Origin: an uncultured Fibrobacteraceae bacterium
Lineage (GTDB): Bacteria > Krumholzibacteriota > Krumholzibacteriia > LZORAL124-64-63
NCBI GenBank assembly: GCA_964399195.1
Contig: CAYNPY010000001.1
Location: forward strand, 59 to 64,058
Reading direction: 5' to 3'
Length of the DNA: 64,000 nt
Numbering within the stretch: the stretch's first letter is position 1; every line of letters starts with the position of its first letter. Shown one piece after another: positions 7,937 to 61,010 of the stretch. Position numbers and translations under genes: made by a program. The notes under the pieces are model-generated. The model saw only the letters and a list, made by a program, of their open reading frames with translations, was not told the DNA's origin and ran no database searches.

Positions 7937-7949
7937 GGCGCCCGCCCCC

Positions 7950-12373: not shown

Positions 12374-12395
12374 GTCCGGCCTTCCGTCGGGATGG

Positions 12396-15918: not shown

Positions 15919-16163
15919 CCGCGGTGGCTCCTTGCCCGGGGACCGGCGGGGGCGGGCCCGGCGCCGTGCAACCCCCGGCCGGAGTATACGGTTCCGCGGC
16001 CGGCGCCGGCCATCACGTTGTCGGTTCGCCGCTTTTCCTGTATGATGAGAGCCACAGCCTGGTCCAACGATCCATCGCACTCGCGCCGCGCATCCCCGGA
16101 TGCCGCGGCTCCGGCACGAACGGCGGCTCCGCCGGGAAGCCGCCACGGCGAATCGAGGACACC

Positions 16164-26821: not shown

Positions 26822-26925
26822 CGGGCCGCCGCCCGGGCCAGCGCGAGGCAGTGGACGGGGATCGCCCGCGGCCTTATCGTCCCTGTCCCGGCCGCGTGCC
26901 CCCGGAACCCCGAAAGGACGACACC

Positions 26926-27905
<980 letters not shown>

Positions 27906-27909
<4 letters not shown>

Positions 27910-30922: not shown

Positions 30923-31037
30923 AATCGGGCCGATGCGCCCCCATCTTGCCGGTGTGGCCGGCCCGTCGGCGCCGCCGCCGGACCGGCGGGCGCGGGCGCC
31001 CGCGCCGGTTACCGACCTCCCCGCGGCAGGTGCTGTC

Positions 31038-31943: not shown

Positions 31944-33172
31944 TGAGCGACACGCCGCGTCCCCCGAGCCTCCTGGACGGATTGCCGCCGCGGCCGCCGG
32001 CCGGCGTCTACTTCGACAACAACGCGACGACGCCCGTCGCGCCGGAAGTCGTGGCCAGGATGGTGCCGCTGCTGAGCGAGCACTACGGCAACCCGTCCAG
32101 CATGCACTCGTTCGGCGCCCGCGCCGGCGACGAGGTGGCGCGCGCGCGGGAGAAGGTCGCCGCGCTGCTCGGCGCCGCGCAGCCGGGCGAGATCGTCTTC
32201 ACCAGCGGCGGCTCCGAGAGCGACAACCTGGCCATCGTCGGCACGCTGCACGCGCATCCGGACAAGCGGCACCTGGTCACGACCGCGGTCGAGCACCCGG
32301 CCGTGCTGGGCCTGTGCCGCGAGCTGCAGAAGCGCCACGGCTACGACGTGACGTTCCTCGGCGTCGACGGCGCCGGCCGCCTGGACCCGGCGCAGGTGGC
32401 CGCCGCGCTGCGGCCGGACACGGCGCTCGTCTCGGTGATGATGGCGAACAACGAGACCGGCGTGCTGTTCGACATCGAGGCGATCGGGCGCGTGGTCAAG
32501 GAGCGCGGCGTGGTCTTCCACGTCGACGGCGTCCAGGCCGTCGGCAAGCTGCCGCTGGACCTCGAGCGCTCGCCCGTCGACCTGTTCGCCGTCTCCGGCC
32601 ACAAGCTGCACGCCGCGAAGGGCGTCGGCGCGCTCTACGTGCGGCGCGGCACCAAGCTGCGGCCCCTGATCGTCGGCGGACACCAGGAGCGCGGCCGGCG
32701 CGCGGGCACCGAGAACGTGGCCGCCATCGCCGGCCTGGGCGTGGCCTGCGACCTGGCGGCCGCCGGCCTCGCGGTCGAGGACGTCCAGGTCAGGCGCCTG
32801 CGCGACCGGCTCGAGCAGGGCCTGCTGGCGGCGATCCCCGACTGCCAGGCCAACGGCGACCCGGCGCAGCGGCTGCCGAACACGACCAACATCAGCTTCC
32901 GTTACATCGAGGGCGAGGGCATCCTGCTCCTGCTGGACCGCGCGGGCGTGGCCGCCAGCAGCGGCTCGGCCTGCACCAGCGGCAGCCTCGAGCCCTCGCA
33001 CGTGCTGCGCGCGATGGGCCTGCCGTTCACGCTGACCCACGGCTCGATCCGCTTCTCGCTGTCGCGCTACAACACCGAGGCCGAGGTCGACTACGTCCTG
33101 GCCGTGCTGCCGCGGATCGTCGAGCGCCTGCGGGCGATCACCCCGTTCAACGAGCAGAGGGCCACCTTCTGA
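31943..33172 (+). CDS. nifS: Cysteine desulfurase NifS (class I aminotransferase V)
   Basis: The start overlaps the nifU stop. The product has the PLP-lysine region SGHKLHAAKGVGALYV and the active-site SSGSACTS. Confidence 0.9.
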   Translation: MSDTPRPPSLLDGLPPRPPAGVYFDNNATTPVAPEVVARMVPLLSEHYGNPSSMHSFGARAGDEVARAREKVAALLGAAQPGEIVFTSGGSESDNLAIVGTLHAHPDKRHLVTTAVEHPAVLGLCRELQKRHGYDVTFLGVDGAGRLDPAQVAAALRPDTALVSVMMANNETGVLFDIEAIGRVVKERGVVFHVDGVQAVGKLPLDLERSPVDLFAVSGHKLHAAKGVGALYVRRGTKLRPLIVGGHQERGRRAGTENVAAIAGLGVACDLAAAGLAVEDVQVRRLRDRLEQGLLAAIPDCQANGDPAQRLPNTTNISFRYIEGEGILLLLDRAGVAASSGSACTSGSLEPSHVLRAMGLPFTLTHGSIRFSLSRYNTEAEVDYVLAVLPRIVERLRAITPFNEQRATF

Positions 33173-33205: not shown

Positions 33206-36760
<3,555 letters not shown>

Positions 36761-36807: not shown

Positions 36808-38667
36808 ATGCGTTCGTTGCGTCTTACCGTGTCCGTCCCGCCGCGGATCCAGCCGCTGGTGGCGCCGTTCTTCCTGGCGGCGGCCCTCGCGGCGGTCCTG
36901 CTGGCCGCCGCCGGCTGCGGCGGCAAGGGCAAGGAGTTGTCGCCGGACACCGTTCTGGCCAAGGTCGGCGAAACGAAGATCACGGTCGGCTACTACGAGA
37001 AGAAGCTCGGCCGCCTGCACCCGGTCGACCTGCCCCGCGACGACGCCGGCAACACCCTGGACACCGCGCAGATGCCCGGCAAGCGCAAGTTCCTCGACAC
37101 CATCATCAACAAGGACGTGATGGTGGAGGTCGCGACGCAGCTCGGGTTCCTCGAGGACGCGCAGATCGACTACGCCCGCAAGACCCTCATCTCGAACGAG
37201 GCGGTGGGCGCGGCCCGCAAGCGCTTCGTCGACGAGCCGGCCTCGAAGTTCACCGAGGAGGACGTCCAGAAGTTCTACGAGAAGTTCGGCACCGTGCGCC
37301 ACTGCCGCTACTTCATCACGAACACGCTGGAGGACGCCCGCCGCGGGCGCGAGAAGGCCCTGGCGGGCGCGGACTGGGCCGACCTCTGGAACGAGTTCCA
37401 CGCCGGGCTCACCGGGCCGACGATCAGCTACGAGATCGATCTGCACTACGGGCGTTTCATCACCTCGTTCGAGGACCCGATCTTCGCGGCCAAGATCGGC
37501 GACATCACCGAGCCGGTGCAGAGCACCTACGGCTGGTGGGTCGTGAAGATCGACGGCGAGGACCAGGCCGAGCGGCCGCCGCTCGAGGAGGCCCGGCAGC
37601 GCATCGAGGCCTCGATCATCAGCCGCAACCAGATGCGCCTGATCGACGCCTTCAAGGCCGAGATCCGCCGCAAGCACGACATGTACATCCGCGAGGACGC
37701 TCTGGTGAAGGCGTACGCCGGCCTGCCGCGCGACGAGGAGATGTTCTATCCCGGCACCAAGGATCCGGTCAGGCGCGAGGACCTGAAGCCGCTGGCTCTG
37801 GAGCCGGCGGACTACGACATGGACTTCTACGGCTACACGGTCAAGGGCGAACCGCGCAAATACACGCTGGGCGACTTCAAGGCGGCCTACGACCGCATGA
37901 GCGTCTTCGAGCGTCCCAAGTGGGCCGAGATGGTCGGCGGCCTGCGCACCAAGATCACCGACGAGATCGACCGCGCGCTGCTCAACTTCGACGCCCAGGA
38001 TCGCGGCCTGGACAAGGATCCGGAGGTGCTCGCGGCCGTGGACGAGCGCATTGACGAGATGCTCGTGGGCAAGCTCTTCGACGAGGGCGTGCACTACGAC
38101 GAGGTCGTGTCGCCCGCGGCGCTCGACTCCGCCTGGGCGCTGCTCAAGGGCGACTACAACCTGCCGGAGACCCGCTCGGGCAAGCGCATTCTCGTCGCGG
38201 ATCAGACGCAGGCGGACAAGGCCCACGCCGCTCTCGAGGCGGGCGAGCCCTGGCGGCGCGTGCTCAACACCTACGGCAGCGACGAGGCGGACAAGGCGCT
38301 GAACGGCAAGCTGGGCCCGATCCGCGCGGACGCGCAGGGCCCCGAGCACGACGCCCTGTTCAGCCTGCAGCCCGGCCAATACAGCACGCCGCGCCGGCTC
38401 GACGACGGTCGTTACTCGATCGTGATGCTGGAGGAGATCGCCGCGCCGCGCAGCCAGGAGCTGGCCGAGGTGGCCGACGCCGTCGTCACGCGCATCCGGA
38501 ACAAGCGCGAGGAGATGGCGTTCCGCGCGGCACTGGACGGCTGGAAGCAGAAGGTCAAGATCGAGGTCTTCGAGGACCGTCTGGCCAAGACCCGCTCGTG
38601 GGAGGAACTGGTCGATGCAGCGAAGCAGGGCAAGCAGCCGCCCGGCGCCACCCCCGCGGGTGGCTGA
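36808..38667 (+). CDS. Peptidyl-prolyl cis-trans isomerase, parvulin-type lipoprotein (PrsA/SurA-like)
   Basis: A real ATG with an AAGGAG RBS lies inside the artefactual 4.9-kb track ORF. The lipobox is LLAAAGCGG, and parvulin regions include HCRYFI and TYGWWVVK. Confidence 0.75.
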   Translation: MRSLRLTVSVPPRIQPLVAPFFLAAALAAVLLAAAGCGGKGKELSPDTVLAKVGETKITVGYYEKKLGRLHPVDLPRDDAGNTLDTAQMPGKRKFLDTIINKDVMVEVATQLGFLEDAQIDYARKTLISNEAVGAARKRFVDEPASKFTEEDVQKFYEKFGTVRHCRYFITNTLEDARRGREKALAGADWADLWNEFHAGLTGPTISYEIDLHYGRFITSFEDPIFAAKIGDITEPVQSTYGWWVVKIDGEDQAERPPLEEARQRIEASIISRNQMRLIDAFKAEIRRKHDMYIREDALVKAYAGLPRDEEMFYPGTKDPVRREDLKPLALEPADYDMDFYGYTVKGEPRKYTLGDFKAAYDRMSVFERPKWAEMVGGLRTKITDEIDRALLNFDAQDRGLDKDPEVLAAVDERIDEMLVGKLFDEGVHYDEVVSPAALDSAWALLKGDYNLPETRSGKRILVADQTQADKAHAALEAGEPWRRVLNTYGSDEADKALNGKLGPIRADAQGPEHDALFSLQPGQYSTPRRLDDGRYSIVMLEEIAAPRSQELAEVADAVVTRIRNKREEMAFRAALDGWKQKVKIEVFEDRLAKTRSWEELVDAAKQGKQPPGATPAGG

Positions 38668-40030
38668 CGGGGCGCGGGCCGGCGGGGTGGTCGGGGCCGT
38701 TTTCGGCGCGGGCGCGCTCGCCGGCGCGCCGGCGGCGCCGGCTCAGGAAGCCGAGCCGGCCGCGGCGACGCCGCCCGCGACCCCGGCGGAGGCGCCGACG
38801 CCGGTGCTGGTCGACCGGATCGTGGCGATCGTGGACGAGGAGCCGATCCTCCAGAGCGACCTCGAGCGCGAGACCGAGTTGTACCGGCTCGAACGCCAGT
38901 ACGCCGGCCAGCCCGTGGCCGACGATCCGGCCGTGGTGCGCCGGGAGATTCTCGACCGGCTGATCGAGAGCAAGCTCATCATCGCCGCGGCCAAGCAGGC
39001 CGACATGAGCGTCGACCCGGAAGCCGTCTCCGGCAGCGTCGACCAGAAGATCCGTCAGTTCGACGAGCACTTCGGCGGCCGCGAAGCGTTCGAGCGCGAG
39101 CTGGCGCGCGCAGGCATGACCCTGGCCGACTACCGCGCGCGCATGGCCGCCCAGCTGCGCGACCAGCAGTACCTGCGCCTGGTCGTGGGCAAGTTCATCC
39201 GGCCGGACATCGAGGTGCTCGAGAACGAGGTGCGGGACTACTACCTGGCGAACCTCGCCGAGATGCCCGCCGAGCCCGACAGCCTGACCATCGCCGACAT
39301 CCTGGTGCCCGTGCAGCCGTCGGTCGAGGCGCGTCGTCGCGTGCAGGAGAAGGTGGAGCGCATCCAGGCCGACCTGAAGGGCGGCCTGCCCTTCGCCGAC
39401 GCGGCGCGGCGCCATTCCGAGGACGCGGCCGCCGCGCGCGGCGGCCTGGTCGGTGCGGTCGGCAGGGAGGACCTCTACGACGCGGGCCTGGCGCGGGCAG
39501 TGTTCGCGCTCGCGGCCGGTCAGGTGAGCGAGCCTGTGGTGACCCCGCGGGGCGTGCACCTGGTGCGCGTGGACGAGGTGCGCGGTGACGGCAAGCGCGT
39601 CATCAGCCAGATCTTCCTGCCGGTCAGCGCCACCGAGCAGGACGTGGCGGCGGCGCGAGCGCAGGCCGACGCGGCGCGGGCGCGCGTGACCGGCGGCGAG
39701 TCGTTCGCGCTGGTTGCCTCCGAGGTCAGCGCCGATCTGGCTTCGGCCCGCAACGGCGGCGTCCTGGGCACGTTCCGGCTGGAGGACCTGAGCGAGACCT
39801 TCCAGGCGGCGCTGGCCGATCTGCCGGAAGGCGCGGTCAGCGAGCCCGTGCTGACGACCGCCGGCTGGTACGTGTTCAAGGTGCTCGCGCGCAAGCCGGG
39901 CCACATGTACACCTACGAGGAACTGTCGGAGCAGCTGCGGCAGGCGGTCGAATCGCAGAAGATCGAGGCGGCGCTCACCGAGTACGTCAAGGGCCTGCGC
40001 AAGCGCTTCTTCATCGAAGAGAAGAGCTGA
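38615..40030 (+). CDS. surA: SurA-like chaperone / peptidyl-prolyl isomerase (SurA_N + two parvulin domains)
   Basis: It has a signal peptide, a SurA N-terminal domain (VDRIVAIVDEEPILQSDL) and parvulin domains (RHSEDAAAARGGLVGAV, VVTPRGVHLVRVDE). The start is either ATG 38615 or GTG 38660, the latter overlapping the previous stop by 8 bp. Confidence 0.75.
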   Translation: MQRSRASSRPAPPPRVADGARAGGVVGAVFGAGALAGAPAAPAQEAEPAAATPPATPAEAPTPVLVDRIVAIVDEEPILQSDLERETELYRLERQYAGQPVADDPAVVRREILDRLIESKLIIAAAKQADMSVDPEAVSGSVDQKIRQFDEHFGGREAFERELARAGMTLADYRARMAAQLRDQQYLRLVVGKFIRPDIEVLENEVRDYYLANLAEMPAEPDSLTIADILVPVQPSVEARRRVQEKVERIQADLKGGLPFADAARRHSEDAAAARGGLVGAVGREDLYDAGLARAVFALAAGQVSEPVVTPRGVHLVRVDEVRGDGKRVISQIFLPVSATEQDVAAARAQADAARARVTGGESFALVASEVSADLASARNGGVLGTFRLEDLSETFQAALADLPEGAVSEPVLTTAGWYVFKVLARKPGHMYTYEELSEQLRQAVESQKIEAALTEYVKGLRKRFFIEEKS

Positions 40031-46771: not shown

Positions 46772-47574
46772 TCGACAGCCACGTCCACCTCGACCGCAGC
46801 GAGTTCGCGGGCGCCGGGCTGGCGGCCGCCGAGCGCGCGCGCGCGGTCGGGGTCACCGGGTTCCTGAACATCGGGTACGATCCTGACTCCAGCCGCGCCT
46901 CGGTGGCGCTGGCGAACGAGTCGCCGGACATCTGGGCCTCGGTCGGCGTGCACCCGCACGACGCGCTGCTCCTGGCGGACGGGGACGGCCGCCTGCACGA
47001 CGCCGGCAGGCGGGTGCTGGCGGAGCTGGGACGGCTGGCGGCCGATCCGCGCGTGGTGGCGATCGGCGAGATCGGCCTGGACTTCTACCGCGACCTCTCG
47101 CCGCGGCCGGCCCAGTTCGCGGCCCTGGCTGCCCAACTGGAACTGGCCGCGGCCGCCGGCAAGCCGGCCGTGTTCCACGTCCGCGACGCCTGGCCAGATC
47201 TGATGTCGTTCCTGGACGCCCGCGGCCTGCCGCCGCGCGGCGGCGTGCTGCACGCCTTCAGCGGCGACGAAGCGGCCCTCGACTGGGCGCTCGAACGCGG
47301 GCTGCGCCTGGGGATCGGCGGCGTGGTCACCTACCGGCAGTCGACCCTGCCGGCGATGGTCGCGCGCGCGGGCCCGGACCACCTGCTGCTGGAGACCGAC
47401 GCGCCCTGGCTGCCGCCGGTGCCGCACCGGGGCGAACGGAACGAACCGGCCCGGCTGCCCCTGGTGCTTGACAAGGTGGCCGCGATCTTGCAAATGGATC
47501 CCGGCGAGGTGGAGCGCAGGACCGACGCCGGCTTCGCCGCGCTGTTCCTCGGGCCCGCGGGCGGTGCGCCTTGA
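46768..47574 (+). CDS. tatD: TatD family metal-dependent DNase/hydrolase
   Basis: The GTG start overlaps the PSP1 stop. The motifs VIDSHVHLD, GEIGLDFY and LLETDAPWL are present. Confidence 0.85.
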   Translation: MIDSHVHLDRSEFAGAGLAAAERARAVGVTGFLNIGYDPDSSRASVALANESPDIWASVGVHPHDALLLADGDGRLHDAGRRVLAELGRLAADPRVVAIGEIGLDFYRDLSPRPAQFAALAAQLELAAAAGKPAVFHVRDAWPDLMSFLDARGLPPRGGVLHAFSGDEAALDWALERGLRLGIGGVVTYRQSTLPAMVARAGPDHLLLETDAPWLPPVPHRGERNEPARLPLVLDKVAAILQMDPGEVERRTDAGFAALFLGPAGGAP

Positions 47575-48410
47575 CCCGCAGCCAGCAGGAGCTCCTGCGG
47601 CAATACGGCATCCGGCCGGTCAAGCGGCGGGGCCAGAACTTCCTGCTGGACGGCAACCTGGCGCGCGCCATCGCCGCCGACGCGCTGGCGCTGGGCGACG
47701 AGGTCCTGGAGCTGGGGGCCGGCGGGGGGGCGCTGACCGTGCACCTGCTCGAAGGCGCGCGCTCCGTGGCCTGCGTCGAGGTGGACCGCGGCTTGTACGC
47801 GGTGCTGCAGGGGGAGTTCGGGGGCCGCCCGGGCTTCCAGGCGATCCTCGGCGACTTGACCCGGCTGGACTGGGACGGAGCCTTGGCCGCGGCCGGGGCG
47901 CGACCTGTGATCGCGGGCAATCTGCCGTACGTGCTGACCAGCCTGGTCCTGTTCAAGGCCGCCGAGCTGCGCGCGCGCATCGCCGGCGCCGTGTTCATGA
48001 TCCAGAAGGAGGTCGCCGAGCGGCTGGTCGCCGCGCCGGGCGGCCGCGATTATGGCGTGCTGGCGGTCGTGCTCGGTTCCGTGTTTGCGATCCGCCAGGT
48101 GCGCACGGTGCCGGCGGACGTGTTCTGGCCGCGGCCGCAGGTGAGCTCGGCGGTGGTCAGCCTGACCCCGGCCGGGGACATGCCCGACGCCGAGTTCGCC
48201 TGGTTTCGCGAGGTGGTCAAGCGCCTGTTCGCCCAGCGGCGCAAGCAGCTGACATCTGGGCTGCGGGGGCAGTTCGGGCTGTCGCCCGAGGCGGCGGACG
48301 AGCTGGCGGCGGCCGCCGGGCTGGACCCCGGCGCGCGGCCGGAGCAGATCGCGCCGGAGGGCTACCGGCGCCTGGCCCGCCTCCTGGGGCCGAAGGATGG
48401 GGACGGATGA
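47571..48410 (+). CDS. rsmA: 16S rRNA (adenine1518/1519-N6)-dimethyltransferase
   Basis: The product carries GQNFLLD, LELGAGGGALT and GNLPY. The TTG start overlaps the tatD stop. Confidence 0.9.
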   Translation: MTRSQQELLRQYGIRPVKRRGQNFLLDGNLARAIAADALALGDEVLELGAGGGALTVHLLEGARSVACVEVDRGLYAVLQGEFGGRPGFQAILGDLTRLDWDGALAAAGARPVIAGNLPYVLTSLVLFKAAELRARIAGAVFMIQKEVAERLVAAPGGRDYGVLAVVLGSVFAIRQVRTVPADVFWPRPQVSSAVVSLTPAGDMPDAEFAWFREVVKRLFAQRRKQLTSGLRGQFGLSPEAADELAAAAGLDPGARPEQIAPEGYRRLARLLGPKDGDG

Positions 48411-50536
48411 CCGGATCCCGGCAGCCTGCACGTCGCCTTGGCGCCGCCTGCGCGGTTGCGCTGCTGTTGGGGGTGTGCCTGACGGCGGCGGCGCCGCAGG
48501 TCCGGGCGCAGTCCGCGGGCGGGGATGACGGCGAGTCCGGGCAGCAACAGTCGCCACCGCCCGGCGGCGCCCTGCGCGCGGCGCGCGAGAAGGCCGCCGC
48601 CGCGCTCGCGGCGGGCGACTCGCTCGCGGCGGCGTCCTGGGACTCCGTGGCCGCCGCCGAGGAGGCCGCGATTCCCGAGGTTCCGGGCCGGTTCCTGCAG
48701 GGGCTGACCTTCTCGCCGGTGGCCGGCGTGCGCGCGAACGTCCGCCAGTACACGTACTACTCCGACTGGACGACAACGGCGAGATTCGCCGGCGCCGCCT
48801 CGGCCAACCAGGCGCTCAACTGGAGCTGGGAGGAGTACCGCAAGCAGGACAAGACGGTCGAGAACCGCAAAGGCTCGCTCGACTACAATTTCGGCCGGCA
48901 GTTGCCGCTGGTGACCGTCATCAACGGCAACTGGAACTGGAGCGAGGACCGCACGACCAACACCGCCGGCTTCGCCAACCTGCTGAAGGTCGACAACAAG
49001 ACCGTCAACCTCAACGCGACGCAGCAGAAGTTCACCGCGCTGGGATTGGTGAATTCCGTGCGCGTGGGCGGCAATTTCACCGACCAGGCCAGCCTGAACC
49101 AGGAACAGCGCAACGACTTCAGCGAGGGCACGGCGGGCGCCAACGCGCAGAGCGGGTGGCGGGCGCTGCCGGGAGTCACGGTGGTGGGGCGCCTGGCGGG
49201 GACCGCCACGGGCGGCACGCGGCTGTTGGCCGGTCTGTCGAGTCCCTCGTCGGCCTCGGGCGACAGCCTCGGCATGGGCGTCTACGTGCAGCGCGGCCTG
49301 GGGACGGCCTTCTTCGAGGTGACGCGCAGCAACTTCGAGAAGAAGTACCTGGAGTTCCGGCGCAACGCGAACGGCCTGATCGACACCGTGGGCGTGCCGG
49401 AAGCCGAAAAGGTCGTGAGCGAGCTGGAGACGCGCGACGCGGTGGCGATGAAGCTGGACTACAAGCTGGCTTACGGCGGCCTCAAGTCGGAGTTCACCGG
49501 CACGCACCTGACGGACGACCTCCAGCTGGCCACCGGCCTGGCGGGGCTGAAGCAGCGGGCCTCGGACGAGGCCAACCTCAAGGTGGGCTTCAAGGCCGGG
49601 CGCGACTCGGTGTCCGTCGCCTGGAAGTACGGCCTGAAGTGGGACGATCAGCGCATCAGGGCCGCCACCGTGAGCCGCGGCCGGCAGTACGTGCAGGAGC
49701 GCGACCTGGTGCTGAACTGGAAGCGCACCCTGTTCACCGCGACGCGGCTGGACCTGCAGTACCACGAGGGCCTCACCCAGGACATCGCCGAGGGCGGCTT
49801 CAACGCGAACGACAAGGACCGCCTGACGCGGGACTTCTCCAGCCGGCTGGAGCGCGGCTGGCGCGACCGCTTCCGCACCTCGATGGTCTTCAGCTGGCGG
49901 CAGACGCAGGACCTGTCCATCCGCGGCGCGAGCTCCTCCAACAACAACGTGAAGGACTCCTACGAGCTGACGCCCGGCTTCACCTGGAAGATCTCGCCGC
50001 TGATCGACCTGGACCAGAGCTACCGCCTCTACATCCAGTACACGGACTACGTGTATTCCTATCTCGCGGCCGTCACGCGCAAGGACGACTACAACAAGCG
50101 CGGCGACCTCGTGACCAAGGTCACCTGCCGTCCCAGCAAGCGGCTGACGGTCACGATCCGCCACGACTGGAACCGGCGCTTCAACGCCACCAAGTCCAGC
50201 GAGGACGCCGCGGGCCGCTCGCTCTACCAGCGCGACCTGGAGCAGGACATCTCGCGGATCGACCTGGACCTGGCCTACGTGGCGGCGCCCGGCATCACGC
50301 TCGAGGCGGGCACCTACCGCACGCGGGACGAGAAGACGGCCAGGGGCAGCTCGGTGACGACGCGGACCGATTCGGGCGAGATGGTCGTGGGCGGCCGCGT
50401 CGACCGGAAGCTGGGCCGGCAGCAGCGCGTCCAGGTGTCGGCGATGGTCAAGAAGATCAACGCCTACGGCCCGAGCGTGACCGCCAGCAGCTCCGATTTC
50501 TGGGAGGCCGACGCATGGCTCAAGTGGACGTTCTGA
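48407..50536 (+). CDS. Putative outer-membrane beta-barrel protein, 709 aa
   Basis: The ATG overlaps the rsmA stop and lies inside a longer track ORF. It has a signal peptide (LLLGVCLTAAAPQVRAQS), alternating amphipathic beta-strand patterns throughout, and a C-terminal aromatic ending (DAWLKWTF) typical of OM barrels. Confidence 0.6.
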   Translation: MTGSRQPARRLGAACAVALLLGVCLTAAAPQVRAQSAGGDDGESGQQQSPPPGGALRAAREKAAAALAAGDSLAAASWDSVAAAEEAAIPEVPGRFLQGLTFSPVAGVRANVRQYTYYSDWTTTARFAGAASANQALNWSWEEYRKQDKTVENRKGSLDYNFGRQLPLVTVINGNWNWSEDRTTNTAGFANLLKVDNKTVNLNATQQKFTALGLVNSVRVGGNFTDQASLNQEQRNDFSEGTAGANAQSGWRALPGVTVVGRLAGTATGGTRLLAGLSSPSSASGDSLGMGVYVQRGLGTAFFEVTRSNFEKKYLEFRRNANGLIDTVGVPEAEKVVSELETRDAVAMKLDYKLAYGGLKSEFTGTHLTDDLQLATGLAGLKQRASDEANLKVGFKAGRDSVSVAWKYGLKWDDQRIRAATVSRGRQYVQERDLVLNWKRTLFTATRLDLQYHEGLTQDIAEGGFNANDKDRLTRDFSSRLERGWRDRFRTSMVFSWRQTQDLSIRGASSSNNNVKDSYELTPGFTWKISPLIDLDQSYRLYIQYTDYVYSYLAAVTRKDDYNKRGDLVTKVTCRPSKRLTVTIRHDWNRRFNATKSSEDAAGRSLYQRDLEQDISRIDLDLAYVAAPGITLEAGTYRTRDEKTARGSSVTTRTDSGEMVVGGRVDRKLGRQQRVQVSAMVKKINAYGPSVTASSSDFWEADAWLKWTF

Positions 50537-51195
50537 ACCGGCGGCGCGGCCGTGGCGCTCCGGGCGCGACGCACGCGACGGGCGCGACCCGCGCGCGGGC
50601 CGCCCTCGTGCCGCTCGCCTGCGCGCTGCTCGCCGCGCTGGCGGGCGGCGGCTGCCTGCTGCAGCCCCGCGAGGCCGAACCCCCGCAGACGGGGGAGATC
50701 GTGCGCTATCTCGAGCAGATCGACCCGGCCAACACCTGGGACAACCTCGAGACCTCGGCCGAGGCGACGCACGCCCCCGGCTGGGAGGACGCGATCAACG
50801 CGACCGACTTCCGCTACATCCCCGACTCGGCGGCCGAGGCCCAGTTCCCGGGCGTGTTCACCAACTGGGGCACGGCGCAGGAAGTCGCGTTCATCAACGC
50901 GCTCTACAACGCCGACGTGACCATCGTGGCGACGATGCGCAACCCGGGTTTCGTCGTGCCGCCGTCCTCCGGCAGCGAGTCGATCTGGGAGAACGTCATC
51001 TACGACCTGCGCGTCACCAGCGTCGTGGACGGTTCGTCGGTGCGCTACCGGGGATCGGCCATCATCACCTTTACGCTGGTGGGCAATTTTTGGTATATTA
51101 CGGAATGGCGCGACCAGCAGGGGGAGAGCGACCCCGATTCCGGTCAGCTGCTGTCGACGCTGGGGGTGCTGCGGGGCAATTTTGCTAGCAAATAA
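50515..51195 (+). CDS. Hypothetical lipoprotein, 226 aa
   Basis: It has a signal peptide with a lipobox (LAALAGGGC). Its ATG overlaps the end of the barrel gene by 22 bp. There is no recognisable catalytic motif. Confidence 0.55.
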   Translation: MAQVDVLNRRRGRGAPGATHATGATRARAALVPLACALLAALAGGGCLLQPREAEPPQTGEIVRYLEQIDPANTWDNLETSAEATHAPGWEDAINATDFRYIPDSAAEAQFPGVFTNWGTAQEVAFINALYNADVTIVATMRNPGFVVPPSSGSESIWENVIYDLRVTSVVDGSSVRYRGSAIITFTLVGNFWYITEWRDQQGESDPDSGQLLSTLGVLRGNFASK

Positions 51196-51209
51196 TCGTC
51201 TCATATACT
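51182..51209 (+). promoter_or_regulatory. Near-consensus sigma70-type promoter (TTGCTA-16 nt-TATACT) in AT-rich islet
   Basis: TTGCTA lies at 51182-51187 and TATACT at 51204-51209, with a 16-nt spacer. The element overlaps the stop of the upstream lipoprotein gene. It is followed by a GC hairpin (51215-51231) and a GGAGG RBS for the ATG at 51304. Confidence 0.45.
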
Positions 51210-51303
51210 AAAATCGGGGGATGGCCCCCCGAGCAGGACGCGGGCTTCTTCCCATTCGAATGTCCCTGTCACCCCGGGAGAGCCCAGGCACGTGGAGGAC
51301 AAG

Positions 51304-51924
51304 ATGTTGAAAACGAAGTACTTGCTGCTGCTGCTCCTGAGCCTGGCCCTGACCGCAGGCGGCGGCTGCATCTTCTCGCCCGGCGACGACGGGTGCGAAG
51401 GGCCGGATTGCGGCGAGCAGCCCGTGGTGCGGCCGTGGCCGGACACGCCGGACAAGCTGATGGCGAACTTCCAGGCCATCTACGAGGACATGGATTTCGC
51501 GGACTTCGCGCAGATGCTGCACCCGCAGTACGTGACCATCCTGCAGGAGAGCACCTACAACCAGTTCCCGGACGTCGGCCTCACGCTGGACCTCGAGGAG
51601 GAACTGCGCATCCATGAGCGCATGTTCTCCAAGCAGGACGTGACCGACCCGGAGGGCAACCTGGTGCCGGGCGTGCAGTCCATCGATTTCCAGACGTTCC
51701 AGCGCCAGGGCGCCTGGAGCGTCTCGCCGGCCAACGACCAGATCCCGAACGCCGAGTACGCGCTCTACGACGCGGTGTTCCTGTTCGACCGCGGCGCGGG
51801 CCACACCATCCTGAAGGTGCAGGGCGCGATCAAGTTCTACGTGGTCGCGCGCGACTCGCTGGTCAACGGCGTGCCGAAGCCCTACTACCGGATGCGCGGG
51901 CAGGTGGACCTGACCGACAACTAG
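51304..51924 (+). CDS. Hypothetical lipoprotein, 206 aa
   Basis: The product starts MLKTKYLLLLLLSLALTAGGGC, giving a lipobox. The GGAGG RBS is 5 nt upstream. The track start at 51292 is a GTG further upstream. Confidence 0.6.
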   Translation: MLKTKYLLLLLLSLALTAGGGCIFSPGDDGCEGPDCGEQPVVRPWPDTPDKLMANFQAIYEDMDFADFAQMLHPQYVTILQESTYNQFPDVGLTLDLEEELRIHERMFSKQDVTDPEGNLVPGVQSIDFQTFQRQGAWSVSPANDQIPNAEYALYDAVFLFDRGAGHTILKVQGAIKFYVVARDSLVNGVPKPYYRMRGQVDLTDN

Positions 51925-51966
51925 CCCGTCTTGACGCGGCGGAGACCGCCGTCCAGCGGCAGCGCA

Positions 51967-51995
51967 GCAAGGGGGAGCCGGCGGTTCCCCCTTGC
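51967..51995 (+). terminator. GC-rich hairpin (10-bp perfect stem GCAAGGGGGA/TCCCCCTTGC) downstream of lipoprotein gene
   Basis: It is a perfect inverted repeat with a 9-nt loop, 43 bp after the stop codon. It has no U-tract, so it is a terminator-like structure only. Confidence 0.35.
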
Positions 51996-52059
51996 GCGTG
52001 TCCGCACGCCGGACAAGCGCGGGCTGGTCGCAGCGCCGCCCCGCGCTTACCATGCGCGC

Positions 52060-53079
52060 ATGTCCAGCGGCCACGCCATCCCAACTTCTCCGCGGCAGGG
52101 TAAGCCGCGACCCCGGCAGCGGCGGGGATCTGCGGCGCTCGTCGCGTGCGCGCTGCTCGCGCTGGCGACCCTGGCCGGCTGCGGCCGCGACGACGCCCCT
52201 GACAGGATGGACACCTCGCGCGGCGACGCTCCGCGCGCGGCGACGGATCGGGCCACCGGGCCGGAGCCGGGCTCGGCGGCGGCGCCCGCGCCCGCGCTCC
52301 CGGCGGCGCCGGCGACCGAACCGGCCGACGGCGGCGCCTCCGCCGGTCCGCGCGTGGCGCTGGTGATCGACGACCTCGGCCAGAGGCTCGGCGGGCCCGA
52401 CGCCGCTCTGCTTGACCTGCCCGTGCCGCTGACGCTGGCGGTGCTGCCGGGCCGCCCGCAATCGCGCGCGATCGCCGACCGGGCGACGACGCCGCGCGGT
52501 CCGGACGACCCCGCCCGCCGCGAGCTGTTCCTGCACCTGCCGATGGAGCCCGAGGGCTACCCGAGCCCGGATCCCGGCCCGGGCGCGCTGCTGCGCGGGC
52601 AGTCGCCGGCGCAGGTGGCCGGGCTGCTGGACGGCGCCCTGGCCTCGGTGCCCGGCGCCGTGGGCGTCAACAACCACATGGGCAGCGCCGCGACCGCCGA
52701 CTCGCTGCTGATGTCGGCGCTGATGGCGGCCCTCGCCGAGCGGGGACTGCGCTTCCTGGACAGCCTGACCACGCCGCGCTCGGTCGCCTGGCGCGCCGCG
52801 CGGGAGGCGGGGGTGCCGACGGCGAGGAACCGGATCTTCCTGGACGCCGAGCCCGCGGACGAAGCCACCATCGCGGCCCGGCTGGCCGAACTGGTGGCCA
52901 CCGCGCGCCGGTCGGGCGCGGCGGTCGGGATCGCCCATCCGCACGCGGCGACCGCCGCGGTGCTGGCGCGCGACGTTCCGCGTTACCAGCAGGAGGGAGT
53001 GCGTTTCGTGACCGTCTCGGAACTGATGCCGCCGGCCGTGGCGGCGCTGGTCGAAGGCGGGGAGGACCATGGCCGCTGA
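52060..53079 (+). CDS. Divergent polysaccharide deacetylase family protein (YibQ-like), lipoprotein
   Basis: The lipobox is LATLAGCG. The domain carries RVALVIDDLGQ...LTLAVLP...HLPMEP...GVNNHMGS, which are YibQ/DUF610 signatures. The start is placed at ATG 52060 inside the track ORF 51931..53079. Confidence 0.7.
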   Translation: MSSGHAIPTSPRQGKPRPRQRRGSAALVACALLALATLAGCGRDDAPDRMDTSRGDAPRAATDRATGPEPGSAAAPAPALPAAPATEPADGGASAGPRVALVIDDLGQRLGGPDAALLDLPVPLTLAVLPGRPQSRAIADRATTPRGPDDPARRELFLHLPMEPEGYPSPDPGPGALLRGQSPAQVAGLLDGALASVPGAVGVNNHMGSAATADSLLMSALMAALAERGLRFLDSLTTPRSVAWRAAREAGVPTARNRIFLDAEPADEATIAARLAELVATARRSGAAVGIAHPHAATAAVLARDVPRYQQEGVRFVTVSELMPPAVAALVEGGEDHGR

Positions 53080-57096: not shown

Positions 57097-58227
57097 TCAG
57101 GGATCCAGAGGCTGGACGCCGGGGACGGTCGCGCGGTGGCATTCGAGGCAGGCCCTGCCCTGGTCGTGGTTCTGCCCGTGGCACTTGCGGCACAGCTGGC
57201 GCTGATCCGGGTCGGGGTAGGGGCTCGGCAGGGGCCAGGAGCCGGAGGCGACGCCGTCGTCGGCCAGGTGGTAGACGCGGAAGTCCCAGCGCCCGGACGC
57301 CGGCGCCGACGAGGCGTGCGCGCGGTGGCAGGTCAGGCAGTGCAGGCGCCCGGCGGTGCCCGGCCCGGCGGTGCGGTCGACCGCGGCGTCGGCGGCCTCG
57401 AAGGGGACCTCCGGCAGGTACGACGTCCCGGCCGCGCCGCCGGTGGGGTTCGCATCGCCGTCGTACATCTCGTAACGCCGCCGCACGCCGGAATCGAGCA
57501 GTTCGTCGACAGGATGCCCGAAGGCCGTCCCGCCGCTGTCGTGGTAGAAGCCGTGGCAGTTCGCGCACCAGCGCGTCATGCCCGAGACGTAGGCGCTGTG
57601 CGCCAGCCTCGACTCCACCGCCGCCGGATCGGTCACCGGGAGCCCGACGGCCACCGGCGCCGGGTAGGCGAAGTGGGCGATGCCGCCCTGCACGGGTCCA
57701 ACGCCGCGCAACATCCGGAAGCCGGCGGTGCCGTGCGGGTCGTGGCAGCTGGTGCAGCCCAGCGAGGCGGACGGAAACGTGCCGCCGGGCGCGCGGGACC
57801 AGCGGCTCTCGGCGGTCAGCCCCCAGGCCGGGGAGACGATGCTGTGGCCGGCGGCCTCGCCGGGCAGGCGCGGCGCCAGGGGGTCGGTGGCGTCGTCCAG
57901 GTCGTCCTCCAGCAGGAACACGAAGTTGCCCGCGCCGAGTTCGCGCGGCGGCTGCAGCGGGTTGAGTCCCATGACGCCGTCGCCGTGGCAGGTCAGGCAG
58001 AGGTCGGTCGAGGAGGCGGCCAGCAGCAGCGGCCGCAGCCCGTCCAGCGCCACCTGTCCGGCGGCGGCGTCGTGCATCACGTGGCAGCGTTCGCAGGTGC
58101 CCACGCCGCCGTCGTGGAACGCGCCGGCCGCGGGCGGAAGGCAGGCGCCGACGGCGGCCAGCGCAACCGCGGCAGCCGCGGCGCGCGGGCGCCGGGAATC
58201 TGAGGATCGGTATGCAGGGATCGCCAT
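57097..58227 (-). CDS. Multiheme c-type cytochrome (7 CxxCH motifs), secreted, 376 aa
   Basis: The ATG at 58227 gives a product starting MAIPAYR with a signal peptide. The heme-binding motifs are CERCH, CLTCH, CTSCH, CANCH, CLTCH, CRKCH and CLECH. It is a paralogue of the next gene. Confidence 0.85.
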   Translation of the reverse strand: MAIPAYRSSDSRRPRAAAAAVALAAVGACLPPAAGAFHDGGVGTCERCHVMHDAAAGQVALDGLRPLLLAASSTDLCLTCHGDGVMGLNPLQPPRELGAGNFVFLLEDDLDDATDPLAPRLPGEAAGHSIVSPAWGLTAESRWSRAPGGTFPSASLGCTSCHDPHGTAGFRMLRGVGPVQGGIAHFAYPAPVAVGLPVTDPAAVESRLAHSAYVSGMTRWCANCHGFYHDSGGTAFGHPVDELLDSGVRRRYEMYDGDANPTGGAAGTSYLPEVPFEAADAAVDRTAGPGTAGRLHCLTCHRAHASSAPASGRWDFRVYHLADDGVASGSWPLPSPYPDPDQRQLCRKCHGQNHDQGRACLECHRATVPGVQPLDP

Positions 58228-58368
58228 GGACCGTCCGCCGGTGCGCGTGGGGGTGATCGCCGCCGCATCCGGGGCGGATCGCACGGAAAAATCATAGCAC
58301 ACGGGCCCGCGCGGCACCAGCGCGTCCGCCCCCGGCGGGCCGCGTGGAGCGGCAAGGCGGCGAAAGCG

Positions 58369-58400
58369 AGGGGCCCCGCGCGATCGCTCGCGCGGGGCCC
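58369..58400 (-). terminator. Strong hairpin (14-bp perfect stem GGGGCCCCGCGCGA/TCGCGCGGGGCCCC, 4-nt loop) between the two small cytochrome genes
   Basis: It lies 24 bp downstream of the stop of the 58424..59530 gene on the minus strand. It is followed on that strand by CGCTTTCG. Confidence 0.5.
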
Positions 58401-58423
58401 CGGAACAGCCGTCGGTCCTGGCC

Positions 58424-59530
58424 CTAGTGGGTGGCGCCGGGATGGTCGTACTGATCCTTCGCGTGGCACTTGTTGCACAGCGAGCGCTGGTTGGCCACGA
58501 ACGTGTAGTTGTAGTACTTGCGGTCGACGTCGGTCTGCACGAAGCCGACATCCGACGTGTTCGGGTGCGACTGCGAGATGAAGTTCACGCCCATGTCCCA
58601 GCGCGCGATGTCCGCGAACGGCGAGGCGTGCGCGCGGTGGCAGCTCAGGCACATGACTTCATCGACGCCCGTCGGGCCCTGCGTGTAGTTCGCGGGATCG
58701 GCGGTGGCCAGGTCGACGTTGACGGCCTCGAACGGCACCAGACCCCAGTACGAGGTGGCTTCGTTGCCGCTGACCAGGTCGTCCGAGCTCACGTACGCGT
58801 TGTAGGTCGCCGCGACCAGCGAGCCCATGGGCCGCGTCGGGTGCGTGAAGTCGGTCGTGTAGTCGGAGTGGAAGTCCCGGTGGCAGTTGGCGCACCAGTC
58901 GCTCATGCCGCTCTTGTAGATGGTGTGGTCGGTGTTCGTCTCCACGCCCGGCTGCGTGCCGTACGTGTTGCGCGAGTTGCCCTTGGCCAGCGGGGCCGGG
59001 TACTGGAAGCTGTACCGGGTGCCGCCGTAGATCGGGCCCATCTGGGTGCCGTAGAGCAGGCGGAAGTTCTCGTTGCCGTGCGGGTCGTGGCAGCTCGTGC
59101 AGCCGAGGCGCGAGCTGAGGAAGCTGCCGCCCGGGGCCGACGCCAGGGTGGCGTCCTGCGCGATGCCGCGCGCCGGCGAGATCACGTTGTGGCCGTGGCT
59201 GTCACCGGTGCTGTTGTACGTCGTGCCGCGCGACACCCAGGAGAAGGTGCGCGTGACCCAGTAGAAGTCGCCGCCGGGGCCGTAGCCCTCGCCGCTGCGG
59301 AACTGGCCGTAGTTGGCGTGGCAGCGCAGGCAGGTGTCCGAGGCACTGCCGGCGTTCAGCAGGTAGGCGTTGCCGTTCGGGTGAGCGGCGTCCACCGGCG
59401 CGCCGTTCTGGCTGTTGTGCATGGTATGGCAGCCGGCGCAGTAGGCGACGCCGGCGTCGTGGAACGCCAGCACCGAGCTGGCCGACAGGCCGAGCGCCAG
59501 CACCAGGGCGATCTTGATGAAAGTCTTCAC
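58424..59530 (-). CDS. Multiheme c-type cytochrome (6 CxxCH motifs), secreted, 368 aa
   Basis: The GTG start has a GGAGG RBS. The product starts MKTFIKIALVLALGLSASSVLA. The motifs are CAGCH, CLRCH, CTSCH, CANCH, CLSCH and CNKCH. It shares the LGCTSCHDPHG / WCANCH / CL[ST]CHRAHAS blocks with the 57097..58227 gene. Its composition is Asn/Tyr/Thr/Ser-rich and its GC is lower than its neighbours. Confidence 0.85.
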   Translation of the reverse strand: MKTFIKIALVLALGLSASSVLAFHDAGVAYCAGCHTMHNSQNGAPVDAAHPNGNAYLLNAGSASDTCLRCHANYGQFRSGEGYGPGGDFYWVTRTFSWVSRGTTYNSTGDSHGHNVISPARGIAQDATLASAPGGSFLSSRLGCTSCHDPHGNENFRLLYGTQMGPIYGGTRYSFQYPAPLAKGNSRNTYGTQPGVETNTDHTIYKSGMSDWCANCHRDFHSDYTTDFTHPTRPMGSLVAATYNAYVSSDDLVSGNEATSYWGLVPFEAVNVDLATADPANYTQGPTGVDEVMCLSCHRAHASPFADIARWDMGVNFISQSHPNTSDVGFVQTDVDRKYYNYTFVANQRSLCNKCHAKDQYDHPGATH

Positions 59531-59712
59531 GTGTGAGCCTCCGAGTGCGAGTTGACGTTTCCCGCGTGGCGGGACGCTTGCGAACTGTCGGCCGCGGGCC
59601 CGGGCTTCATCTCCCGGCGGGCCTGCGGCGCGCGATCGATCCTCCTTCAGGTCGACGCCCCTCAGACGAGCGATTCCCCGTACCAGGCCCGGTCCCGCAG
59701 GACCGGGCGCGT

Positions 59713-60702
59713 CTATTCAACCGTCCCGGCGGCCAGGACGCTGAACACCTGCACGCGACCGCGATAGCCCTGCGCCACGTAGAGGCGCCCGCCGGCGTCC
59801 GTCGCGATGGACACCGGATGGTAGAAGGCGCCCGGCGCGTCGCCGACCACGCCGAATTCACCGCTGAACTCCTGCCGGGCGTCGAAGGCCAGGACCTTGT
59901 GCCGCATCTGGTCCAAAACCAGCAGCGAGCCGTCCGGGCCGGCCGCCACGGCCACCGGCGCCACGAACCGGCCGGGCGAGGCGCCGAAGCGCCCGAACGA
60001 CGCGCGCACGGCGCCGCCTTCCTCGACCAGCAGGATCCGGTGCAGGTTGGCGCCGGGCACCGCGTAGGTGCCGTCCGGCAGCTGGACCGGCCGCCCGAGG
60101 CCCAGTTCGAGTCCGCGGTCGCCGCTCTCGGGCTCGGCGATGACTGCCGACCACAGGACGGCGCCGGTTTCGGCGTCGTGCTTGGCCATCAGGCCGCTCG
60201 CGTCGTCGACCGTGACGTAGTTGCCGTCGCGGGCGACCAGCACGCGACCCGGGCGCCAGCCTTCGCGCGGCGCCTGGGCGGCCCAGCCGTCGGGCTCGCC
60301 GTACACGTCCAGCCGCGCGAGCGTGCGCCGGGCGCCTCCGCTGAGCGAGACGGCGACCAGGCGGCCGGCGTGGTCGATGGCGCCGTCGACCGGCTGCGAC
60401 AGTTCCGCGTAGCCGGAGGTGCGGAAGGCCTCGACGCCCGCGGCGTTGAACACGTGCAGCACGCCGTGCGCGGCGTCGGTCACGACCATGCCGCCGGTGC
60501 GGTCGTCGCAGGTGACGGCCGCGGGCAGCAGGCGCCCGTCCTCGTGGCGCTGCAGTTCAAGGCTCGATTCGTAACGGAACTCGAAACGGTATCCGGCTGT
60601 CCTCGCGTCGGTTGCGGACAGGGCCGGCGCAGGGAGGGCAGATGCGAGCAGGGCCAGCGCCGCGCTTGTCAGCGCGCCAACACCCCACGGGTGTCGGTGC
60701 AT
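59713..60702 (-). CDS. Secreted NHL-repeat beta-propeller protein
   Basis: It has a signal peptide (ALTSAALALLASALPAPALSA) and repeated [YF]-x-P-x-G[IV]A / GR[LI][YL]VAD-like NHL blades (GRLYVAQGYRGRVQVF). Confidence 0.65.
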   Translation of the reverse strand: MHRHPWGVGALTSAALALLASALPAPALSATDARTAGYRFEFRYESSLELQRHEDGRLLPAAVTCDDRTGGMVVTDAAHGVLHVFNAAGVEAFRTSGYAELSQPVDGAIDHAGRLVAVSLSGGARRTLARLDVYGEPDGWAAQAPREGWRPGRVLVARDGNYVTVDDASGLMAKHDAETGAVLWSAVIAEPESGDRGLELGLGRPVQLPDGTYAVPGANLHRILLVEEGGAVRASFGRFGASPGRFVAPVAVAAGPDGSLLVLDQMRHKVLAFDARQEFSGEFGVVGDAPGAFYHPVSIATDAGGRLYVAQGYRGRVQVFSVLAAGTVE

Positions 60703-60920
60703 GCAAACTGCGGCCAAGGTGCGGGGCATCTGTCACGCTCACGTCATGAAGCCGGGGTTTGCGGCGCCCAAGCGGGCTTTTCTTGTCACGGAGATATCAT
60801 ATCACATGGGCGGTGGATGTCAATCATGTCGCCAAAAAAAAAACGTGGGTTCGGTCATGCAGATGACTTTCGCTATCAAAACCTGACCGACCGTCATTCG
60901 GGAAGCCGGTCGCCATGGTG

Positions 60921-60962
60921 GAAAAAACGGCCCCGGCGGCGCCGCGAGGGCACCGCCGGGGC
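60921..60962 (-). terminator. Rho-independent terminator of the giant cytochrome gene (10-bp stem GCCCCGGCGG/CCGCCGGGGC, then U6 on minus strand)
   Basis: On the minus strand the hairpin is followed by CGUUUUUUC. It lies 49 bp downstream of the stop at 61011, in a 300-bp lower-GC intergenic region that also contains an A10/T10 run (60836-60845). Confidence 0.65.
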
Positions 60963-61010
60963 TCGCTGTCCGTGGTCCGCCGAACGGGCCGCGGGCGGCT
61001 GCGCCGCCGC

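Follow-up and report, generated by a model that had tools for sequence, protein, structure and literature searches.

What kind of outer membrane (OM) system is encoded directly behind the 16S rRNA dimethyltransferase gene ksgA in an uncultured bacterium of the phylum Krumholzibacteriota? In the 64,000-nucleotide stretch analysed here (hereafter the window; contig CAYNPY010000001.1 of assembly GCA_964399195.1), ksgA is followed by a gene for a large β-barrel protein and by two lipoprotein genes, named lipo1 and lipo2 below. The earlier note on this DNA had proposed that barrel and lipoprotein could form an OM complex analogous to LptD/LptE, either a lipopolysaccharide (LPS) or lipid translocon or a novel barrel-plug pair. 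We regard the last of these as the best reading: the barrel, lipo1 and lipo2, which by our profile searches are three undescribed protein families, probably form one previously undescribed OM complex. The analysis establishes the anatomy of the locus, the folds of the barrel and of lipo1, the paralogous relation between lipo1 and lipo2, the strict synteny of the module in two phyla and the lack of similarity to described families. The genes and the elements next to them are as follows (window coordinates).

47571-48410, + strand: ksgA/rsmA, 16S rRNA dimethyltransferase, 279 aa (TIGR00755, PF00398)
48407-50536, + strand: OM β-barrel gene, 709 aa, with signal peptide, all-β model and terminal F709
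50515-51195, + strand: lipo1, predicted lipoprotein with an NTF2-like model, 226 aa, lipobox Cys47
51182-51214, + strand: promoter-like AT-rich element, at and just past the lipo1 stop codon
51304-51924, + strand: lipo2, predicted lipoprotein and paralogue of lipo1, 206 aa from its ATG
51931-53079, + strand: YibQ-like "divergent polysaccharide deacetylase" gene (PF04748), a downstream neighbour given for context only

The four genes that the earlier note had described, from ksgA to the second lipoprotein, are all present on the + strand, and their junctions are as it had read them. The ksgA product matches TIGR00755 (E = 4.5e-60; 203 bits, cutoff 171 bits) and PF00398 (E = 1.1e-41) and is, on these profiles, a bona fide RsmA. 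Its stop codon (TGA, 48408-48410) overlaps the barrel start codon (ATG from 48407) in an ATGA junction. The barrel stop codon (50534-50536) lies inside the lipo1 open reading frame (ORF), which gives an overlap of 22 nt, and the lipo1 start (ATG 50515) is preceded by the Shine-Dalgarno sequence GGGAGG. Between lipo1 and lipo2 there is a spacer of 96-108 nt, depending on whether GTG 51292 or ATG 51304 is taken as the lipo2 start. The ORF lister had chosen the GTG (210 aa); since MLKTK is the start of the homologues and the ATG is preceded by an invariant Shine-Dalgarno sequence, GGAGGA (51294-51299), we take ATG 51304 as the real start, so that lipo2 has 206 aa. For each of the barrel, lipo1 and lipo2 we found 70-145 homologues at E < 1e-50, and the features of the locus are therefore not a product of chance.

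The earlier assignment of the 709-aa protein, with its terminal aromatic residue, as an OM β-barrel is supported by the properties generally expected of such proteins. It starts with a Sec signal peptide (residues 1-34, ...APQVRA/QS), its AlphaFold2 (AF2) model is all-β over residues 97-708 (pLDDT 81.9, pTM 0.65), and it ends with a C-terminal aromatic β-signal (...WLKWTF) whose final F709 is invariant in 34 sequences. Residues 35-96 form a low-confidence linker (pLDDT 25-58) that is disordered or folded into short helices, with no β-sandwich; this periplasmic N-terminal segment contains an A-x-x-D-S motif that is nearly invariant in both phyla in which the family occurs (see below). Plug, jellyroll and POTRA domains, or any additional folded domain, are absent from the model, and all inter-strand connections are of 18 residues or fewer.

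Residues 97-708 contain 29 strand elements according to DSSP. The number of strands must be even if both termini are to be periplasmic, and with the first DSSP elements taken as one kinked strand the model predicts a barrel of about 28 strands, which stands out from the usual 8-26. In a 2026 preprint on strand counting (bioRxiv 10.64898/2026.03.07.710327), 8-26 is given as the general range for single-chain OM barrels, and labels like 28 are put aside as being rare or doubtful. Our literature searches on 28-stranded barrels returned nothing specific. Larger barrels have been described in SprA (36 strands) and Deinococcus SlpA (30 strands), the pores of which are closed by partner proteins or by their own domains. 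The protein studied here resembles them in exceeding the usual size range and differs from both in the lack of any sequence relation, of an SLH or coiled-coil domain and of a type IX secretion context; its query-normalised TM-score (TMq) to SprA is 0.31.

In searches with the barrel, lipo1 and lipo2 no Pfam or NCBIfam model was matched beyond noise level at E up to 1, and no PDB sequence was matched in profile searches. For the barrel, the Pfam check took in the window protein and 34 family members. The comparison with OstA/LptD, LptE, BamA and other OM protein families that the earlier note had called for thus assigned the protein to no characterised family. Foldseek likewise retrieved only generic large barrels from the PDB, with a probability of 1.00 to many OM barrels, and the best structural match was MtrB (6R2Q chain B; TMq 0.41).

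We found that the most conserved motifs of the family, i.e., YRxQDR (143-148), NxND (466-469), SSNNN (509-513), DDYNKRG (559-566) and GPSV (688-691), are placed at short loops on the extracellular side when sides are assigned by counting connections from the periplasmic C-terminus. The mean column conservation is 0.69 there versus 0.53 in the periplasmic turns. In ordinary porins the pattern is the opposite, and we take the conservation at the extracellular face as a hint of a conserved partner or gate there. The broad barrel alignment offered no block conserved enough to serve for a locus scan.

As for lipo1, its lipobox (...LAGGGC), with G46-C47 invariant in 25 homologues, predicts a bacterial lipoprotein with a mature length of about 180 aa. 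The AF2 model is confident (pLDDT 89.5, pTM 0.81) and shows the secondary-structure order H-H-H-E-E-E-E(-H), so that the modelled fold of the domain, of about 18 kDa, is an NTF2-like α+β cone. Foldseek returned 77 PDB structural matches at E ≤1e-3, and among the matches listed almost all are NTF2-like; those at the top are CaMKII-association-domain-like, SnoaL/NTF2-like, scytalone dehydratase and dioxygenase β-subunit structures, with TM-scores of 0.55-0.70 when normalised by target length. Lipo1 shares the cone with the NTF2-like superfamily (SnoaL, DUF4440, CaMKII association domain), to which lipo2 is added through its homology with lipo1, and departs from it in several respects. It is predicted to be lipid-anchored, and about 24 residues without regular structure follow the lipidated cysteine, forming a linker that holds the invariant tether C-L-F-x-P-R-[DE]. 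Its C-terminus is a confidently modelled helix (...T[MW]G[VF]L[RK]G; [ST]WGx[LVI][KR] in the wider family), and its gene is tied to that of a giant barrel. MlaC, the periplasmic phospholipid carrier, is described as containing an NTF2-like domain (PMC12153054).

Lipo2 is likewise predicted to be a lipoprotein, based on a lipobox (...AGGGC) whose Cys26 is nearly invariant in 24 sequences; the lipobox cysteine of lipo1 and of lipo2 recurs in the Latescibacteria orthologues. The mature protein begins with C-I-F-S-P, and the post-cysteine tether C-[ILF]-[LF]-x-P is thus common to lipo1 and lipo2, while the C-terminal helix of lipo1 is absent. Sub-threshold Pfam matches in the lipo2 family comprise SnoaL_3 in 4 of 24 members (best E 0.022) and a faint DUF4440 match in one locus (L008); no member of the lipo1 or lipo2 family reaches any Pfam gathering score, and lipo2 is counted as NTF2-like because it is homologous to lipo1.

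Profile comparison bore out the distant paralogy between the two lipoproteins that had been suspected. BLASTP detected no similarity between the two. An initial hhalign probability of 94.6% was discarded as an artefact of the signal peptide and lipobox, since it fell to 1.4% once the signal peptides were trimmed from profiles made of Krumholzibacteria sequences only. With the signal peptides removed and the Latescibacteria orthologues added, lipo1 and lipo2 align over 153 columns with a probability of 98.2% (E = 4e-14), and lipo1 aligns with the "tailed" paralogues at 97.9% (E = 3.7e-13). Features recurring among lipo1, lipo2 and the paralogues are an N-terminal helix (..NVWANLE.. / ..KLMANFQ.. 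/ ..VLNNLELSY..), a last strand with W..WRD and the [ST]WGx[LVI][KR] helix at the C-terminus. On this profile evidence lipo1 and lipo2 are ancient paralogues, whose duplication is older than the separation of the two phyla.

Homologues of the barrel number 70 (E < 1e-117); they have about 700 aa, none contains a Pfam domain, and Candidatus Krumholzibacteria is the only organism name among them. Profile searching in 1.84 billion representative proteins extended the family to 172 relatives, including full-length sequences, 620-720 aa long, with 17-24% identity, and a genome scan with this distant group led to loci named Candidatus Latescibacterota or Latescibacteria, in addition to Krumholzibacteriia. 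Within the reach of HMMER, the family is limited to Krumholzibacteriota and Latescibacterota, two related phyla in the FCB group (Fibrobacteres-Chlorobi-Bacteroidetes). Long sequences that carry the module include the Latescibacteria chromosome OY970173.1 and the contig JADJQR010000001.1.

We determined the genetic context in 20 loci carrying a barrel homologue (L001-L020). A lipo1 orthologue directly follows the barrel gene in all 20, at barrel identities down to about 22% and with a spacing that ranges from the 22-nt overlap to about 65 nt. The ksgA gene lies directly upstream in 18 of the 18 loci with upstream DNA, and the PF04748 gene and secDF are found downstream in 18 of 19. The interval between lipo1 and the PF04748 gene holds additional lipo2-like lipoprotein genes, as many as eight in L010. 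A "core" lipo2 orthologue is recognizable in both phyla as the first gene after lipo1, with the mature start C-[ILF]-[LF]-x-P and no C-terminal helix. The barrel-lipoprotein unit is thus a conserved neighbourhood, a point that the earlier note had put up for checking. In Krumholzibacteria it is embedded in the array ftsE-ftsX-M23-holB-ricT-tatD-ksgA-barrel-lipo1-lipo2-PF04748-DUF362/Fer4-secD-secF.

Conservation of such a long array could also mean that the barrel is a large diffusion pore, general or substrate-specific, next to which functionally independent lipoproteins, periplasmic or surface-located, have been kept by a frozen order of housekeeping genes. The synteny of the ftsE-to-secF array across the phylum fits this account, as do the lipo2-family members found elsewhere without barrels and the weak matches to generic porin-type Pfam families (OMP_b-brl, OmpG-like, DUF2490) in a few barrel-family members. 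Yet barrel and lipo1 genes overlap or nearly overlap in all 20 loci, including those with different surroundings (L004, L009, L010). The conserved extracellular-side motifs are atypical of porins, and an open porin of this size (about 28 strands), short-looped and without a constriction, would be unprecedented and hazardous. We consider a diffusion pore unlikely.

The relation to LptD/LptE is of particular interest, as the module shares with this pair a very large OM barrel (about 28 strands versus 26 in LptD) encoded together with a lipoprotein of about 20 kDa that could plug it. In addition, a surA gene (window 38615-40030), ksgA and, in two loci (L009, L010), pdxJ are found in the neighbourhood, which recalls the lptD-surA-pdxA-ksgA operon of E. 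coli; this likeness is circumstantial. If barrel and lipo1 were a strongly diverged LptD/LptE, they would be the LPS translocon of the lineage, and the barrel size, the neighbourhood and the co-translation with a lipoprotein of about 180 aa would find an explanation. However, the LptD, OstA_N and LptE models (PF04453, PF03968 and PF04390, respectively) gave no match at E up to 1 among the window proteins and 34 barrel-family members, and LptD was absent from the profile search of PDB sequences with the barrel. The N-terminal β-jellyroll (OstA_N), which docks LptA and takes over LPS from it, is lacking in both the AF2 model of the barrel and the Pfam scan. The TMq values of the barrel to LptD structures (9ia5, 9fz5, 7omm, 5ixm, 9rpw) are 0.20-0.29, i.e., below that of MtrB and similar to those of unrelated TonB-dependent receptors. 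Lipo1 is an NTF2-like cone, one of two paralogues, with no PF04390 match and no LptE among its top 50 PDB structural matches. Youssef et al. (2015; PMC4454575) list LptBCDEF/G, BamA and BamD in Latescibacteria single-cell genomes in their supplement, and this annotation speaks against the barrel being a genome's only LPS translocon candidate; our own literature searches on Krumholzibacteriota or Latescibacteria with LptD returned nothing specific.

We have therefore rejected homology with LptD/LptE, given the missing Pfam/NCBIfam and PDB profile matches and the different folds, and consider a diverged LptD/LptE pair extremely unlikely. The resemblance is at most an analogy of architecture and not family membership. 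The earlier interpretation stands as regards the OM barrel, the coupled lipoprotein gene, the conserved neighbourhood and the paralogous second lipoprotein, and is not supported as regards a relation to LptD/LptE.

We also compared the module with the other OM systems in which a barrel works with partner proteins. MtrB/PioB (PF11854; 26 strands in 6R2Q chain B) provides the best structural match, sheathes a partner protein and carries the lipoprotein MtrC. In contrast, neither the window protein nor the family members match PF11854, and the module has no multihaem partner: in the 20 loci no CXXCH proteins stand beside the barrel, the neighbours of which are lipo1 and lipo2, and the lipoproteins themselves are without CXXCH motifs. 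No matches were obtained to the Omp85/BamA/TamA and Slam models (PF01103, PF07244, DUF560), and the predicted strand number lies far above the 16 or 14 of these barrels. As in SusC/SusD and BAM-type (β-barrel assembly machinery) systems, lipoprotein genes stand behind an OM barrel gene; the module differs from these systems in lacking plug, TonB box, POTRA and homology, and in the folds of the lipoproteins.

The gene order of barrel first and lipoproteins second, the varying number of lipoprotein copies, the short loops and the conserved extracellular rim are what a SusC/SusD-like uptake system would also present, with the lipoproteins acting as lids that capture a nutrient on the extracellular face of the barrel. 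Such a system would call for energy coupling, of which nothing is apparent: the barrel has no match to PF07715 or PF00593 (TonB_dep_Rec), its model has no plug domain, and no TonB box was recognized. Furthermore, the lipoproteins are NTF2-like rather than SusD-like and the locus is a housekeeping one, not a polysaccharide-utilisation locus. We hold this analogy to be very unlikely.

A separate multihaem cytochrome cluster is located in the window at 57097-63974 on the - strand. It encodes a protein of 987 aa (about 19 paired-CXXCH matches, MtrC/MtrF-like domain hits), two smaller multihaem proteins and an NHL-repeat β-propeller (59713-60729), and suggests a capacity for extracellular electron transfer. 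As an MtrCAB-like partner of the barrel this cluster was rejected, since it lies 6.5 kb away on the opposite strand, is present in L001 and absent from most syntenic loci, including L003-L006, L009 and L010, and the lipoproteins have no haem motifs.

The lipo2 family extends beyond the barrel loci. In Krumholzibacteria genomes, paralogues with no adjoining barrel are found in L021 (5592-7004 and 7001-7669) and L023 (7001-7888); in these, the NTF2-like domain comes after an N-terminal part made of one to several repeats, each about 45 aa long (APWQLxGP...YTxTWG), and a WGxVKAxFR helix forms the C-terminus. In Latescibacteria, 2-7 tandem lipo2-like genes (about 200 aa) follow lipo1, as in L010 (11693-16335) and also in L009, L013-L016 and L018. 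Many of these tandem paralogues have acidic residues right behind the lipobox cysteine (C-E-D-E-E, C-S-D-D-D, C-G-E-D-D) and end with TWGxVKALY[RK]. We considered the C-terminal motif WGxVKALYR as a sorting signal and rejected this in favour of a structural helix, given that the homologous segment of lipo1 is a confident helix in the model.

These paralogues bear on another possible function of the module, namely that the barrel with lipo1 as a fixed subunit exports lipo2-family lipoproteins to the cell surface, analogous to Slam/type 11 systems or to the unidentified surface-lipoprotein flippase of Bacteroidota, the adjacent paralogues being its cargo. The tandem arrays of up to 7 genes directly after lipo1 (L010) and the diversification of paralogues by additional N-terminal repeats would suit an exporter, and the acidic residues after the lipidated cysteine are suggestive, as they resemble the lipoprotein export signal of Bacteroidota. 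On the other hand, the barrel has no similarity to Slam/DUF560, the core lipo2 next to it carries the lipo1-type tether and not the acidic motif, and a family restricted to two phyla cannot be a general exporter of the FCB group. An export function appears quite unlikely to us.

We thus return to a lineage-specific OM complex composed of a plug-less barrel of about 28 strands, the NTF2-like lipo1 and lipo2, in which the lipoproteins would occlude or cap the barrel; in our judgement the chances of this being correct are about even. With n = 28 and a tilt of about 40°, the standard barrel-radius relation (textbook geometry) gives a radius of about 25 Å to the Cα atoms, so that a plug-less barrel with short loops would, left to itself, keep a pore about 4 nm wide open in the membrane. 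To our knowledge, every barrel of at least 22 strands is closed by its own plug domain or by a partner protein (TonB-dependent transporters, ushers, LptDE, MtrAB, SprA). Lipo1 is the candidate for this role because it is the only invariant partner gene and its lipoprotein domain of about 18 kDa is comparable in size to LptE. NTF2-like proteins commonly dimerise and their cones typically hold hydrophobic ligands. In the mechanism that we envisage, the barrel would be co-translated with lipo1, lipo2 would be expressed from its own promoter, and one lipoprotein or a lipo1-lipo2 heterodimer would occupy or cap the barrel lumen. The most likely task of the complex would then be to let a hydrophobic or amphipathic constituent of the envelope (a lipid, a glycolipid or a lipoprotein) through in a gated manner, or to handle it, rather than LPS export itself. 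Its architecture, a barrel with a lipoprotein plug acting in trans, would be LptDE-like and independently evolved.

Several points weigh against this model. The barrel strand count has to be given as 26-28, as it was read from the DSSP string rather than from coordinates. The conservation of the whole ftsEX-M23-holB-ricT-tatD-ksgA...PF04748-secDF array may mean that adjacency reflects nothing but a rigid housekeeping order. Genes of the lipo2 family occur in multiple copies, some of them at a distance from every barrel, so that lipo2 is not necessarily an obligate subunit. Divergence is faster in the barrel (43-48% identity) than in KsgA (58-68%) and SecD (53-66%) in the same genome pairs, and essentiality is thus not implied. 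The weakest step is the hydrophobic cargo, which is a guess, favoured because NTF2-like cones, including the domain in MlaC, typically bind hydrophobic ligands. In its most ambitious form, the model would define an undescribed class of OM machine, i.e., a barrel of about 28 strands, larger than LptD and gated by a heterodimer of paralogous NTF2-like lipoproteins, that carries a hydrophobic cargo, be it a lipid, a glycolipid or a surface lipoprotein, into or across the OM of Latescibacterota and Krumholzibacteriota and that evolved independently of Lpt, Bam, Slam and Sus; this we regard as speculative and improbable.

Few OM machines made of a barrel and lipoproteins are known (LptDE, BAM, SusCD, MtrCAB), and each of them has revealed a basic principle of the envelope. 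The module described here is a conserved, unannotated three-protein unit of two widespread uncultured phyla, rigidly linked to a gene of ribosome biogenesis, ksgA, and we know of no description of an NTF2-like fold as a barrel partner. Should the complex form, the plugged giant barrel would have been invented here independently, and three new families would be added for annotation. Should it not, the locus is still a clean phylum-level case of conserved cell-envelope genes without an assigned function.

A promoter of its own, already ascribed to lipo2 in the earlier note, finds support in a conserved promoter-like element. The consensus scan detected a sigma-70-like site at 51182-51209 (TTGCTA-16-TATACT), one of 3 such sites in 7.7 kb versus 0.1 expected by shuffling. 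The AT-rich block TGnTAAAAT (extended -10) stands just after the lipo1 stop codon in the window and in four other loci (L001, L002, L004 and L005), the proteins of which are 35-57% identical, which lends phylogenetic support to the predicted element. In the lipo2 5' untranslated region (51214-51232 and 51250-51283), a GC hairpin (GGGGGAUGGCCCCC) and the block GGGCTTC...CCCTGTCACCCCGGGRRAGCCC are conserved in the window, L001 and L004. RNAalifold predicts only a weak stem there (6 bp, -0.36 kcal/mol), and Rfam gave no match in the whole window.

The G+C content of the window is about 72% and falls to 0.67-0.71 across 48001-52000, where the barrel and lipoprotein genes are located, versus 0.72-0.79 in the flanks. 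The dip finds its simplest explanation in OM proteins rich in Asn, Lys, Tyr and Thr together with an AT-rich spacer, and a foreign origin is disfavoured.

The product of the gene at 51931-53079 matches PF04748 at E = 8.4e-69. It has a membrane anchor in most loci and a lipobox only in the window and L001. We treat it as a context neighbour and not as an established member of the barrel-lipoprotein module. Polysaccharide export of the PgaA/PgaB type, with this protein as the deacetylase, was set aside because it is anchored in the inner membrane in most loci and no synthase is linked. Upstream, at 41.7-44.6 kb of the window, lie ftsE, ftsX and a gene for an EnvC-like M23 peptidase, and holB-ricT-tatD-ksgA-barrel-lipo1-lipo2 occupies the interval between these and the PF04748 gene. 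The proximity of a YibQ-like gene to ftsEX-M23 genes fits the adjacency of yibQ and envC in E. coli.

Conserved genes split into two or three ORFs were found among the compared loci, namely ricT, tatD and secF in L002 (5221-6350, 6320-6916 and 15964-17237) and the lipo2 orthologue in L009 (11707-12298); the splits are probably assembly frameshifts rather than pseudogenes. Elsewhere in the window, three ORFs with coding-like G+C at third codon positions have no Pfam match at E ≤1e-3: 12396-13613 (- strand, 405 aa), 13795-16146 (- strand, 783 aa) and 23850-25547 (+ strand, 565 aa). The first two adjoin a resistance-nodulation-division efflux cluster with two AcrB-like genes (4541-11207) and an HlyD gene (11024-12472). 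At 26851-30922, a MoxR AAA+ ATPase gene is followed by a gene for a BatA/VWA protein, as in Bat-like aerotolerance clusters, and this region adjoins NifU/NifS (30933-33172) and mfd (33206-36760).

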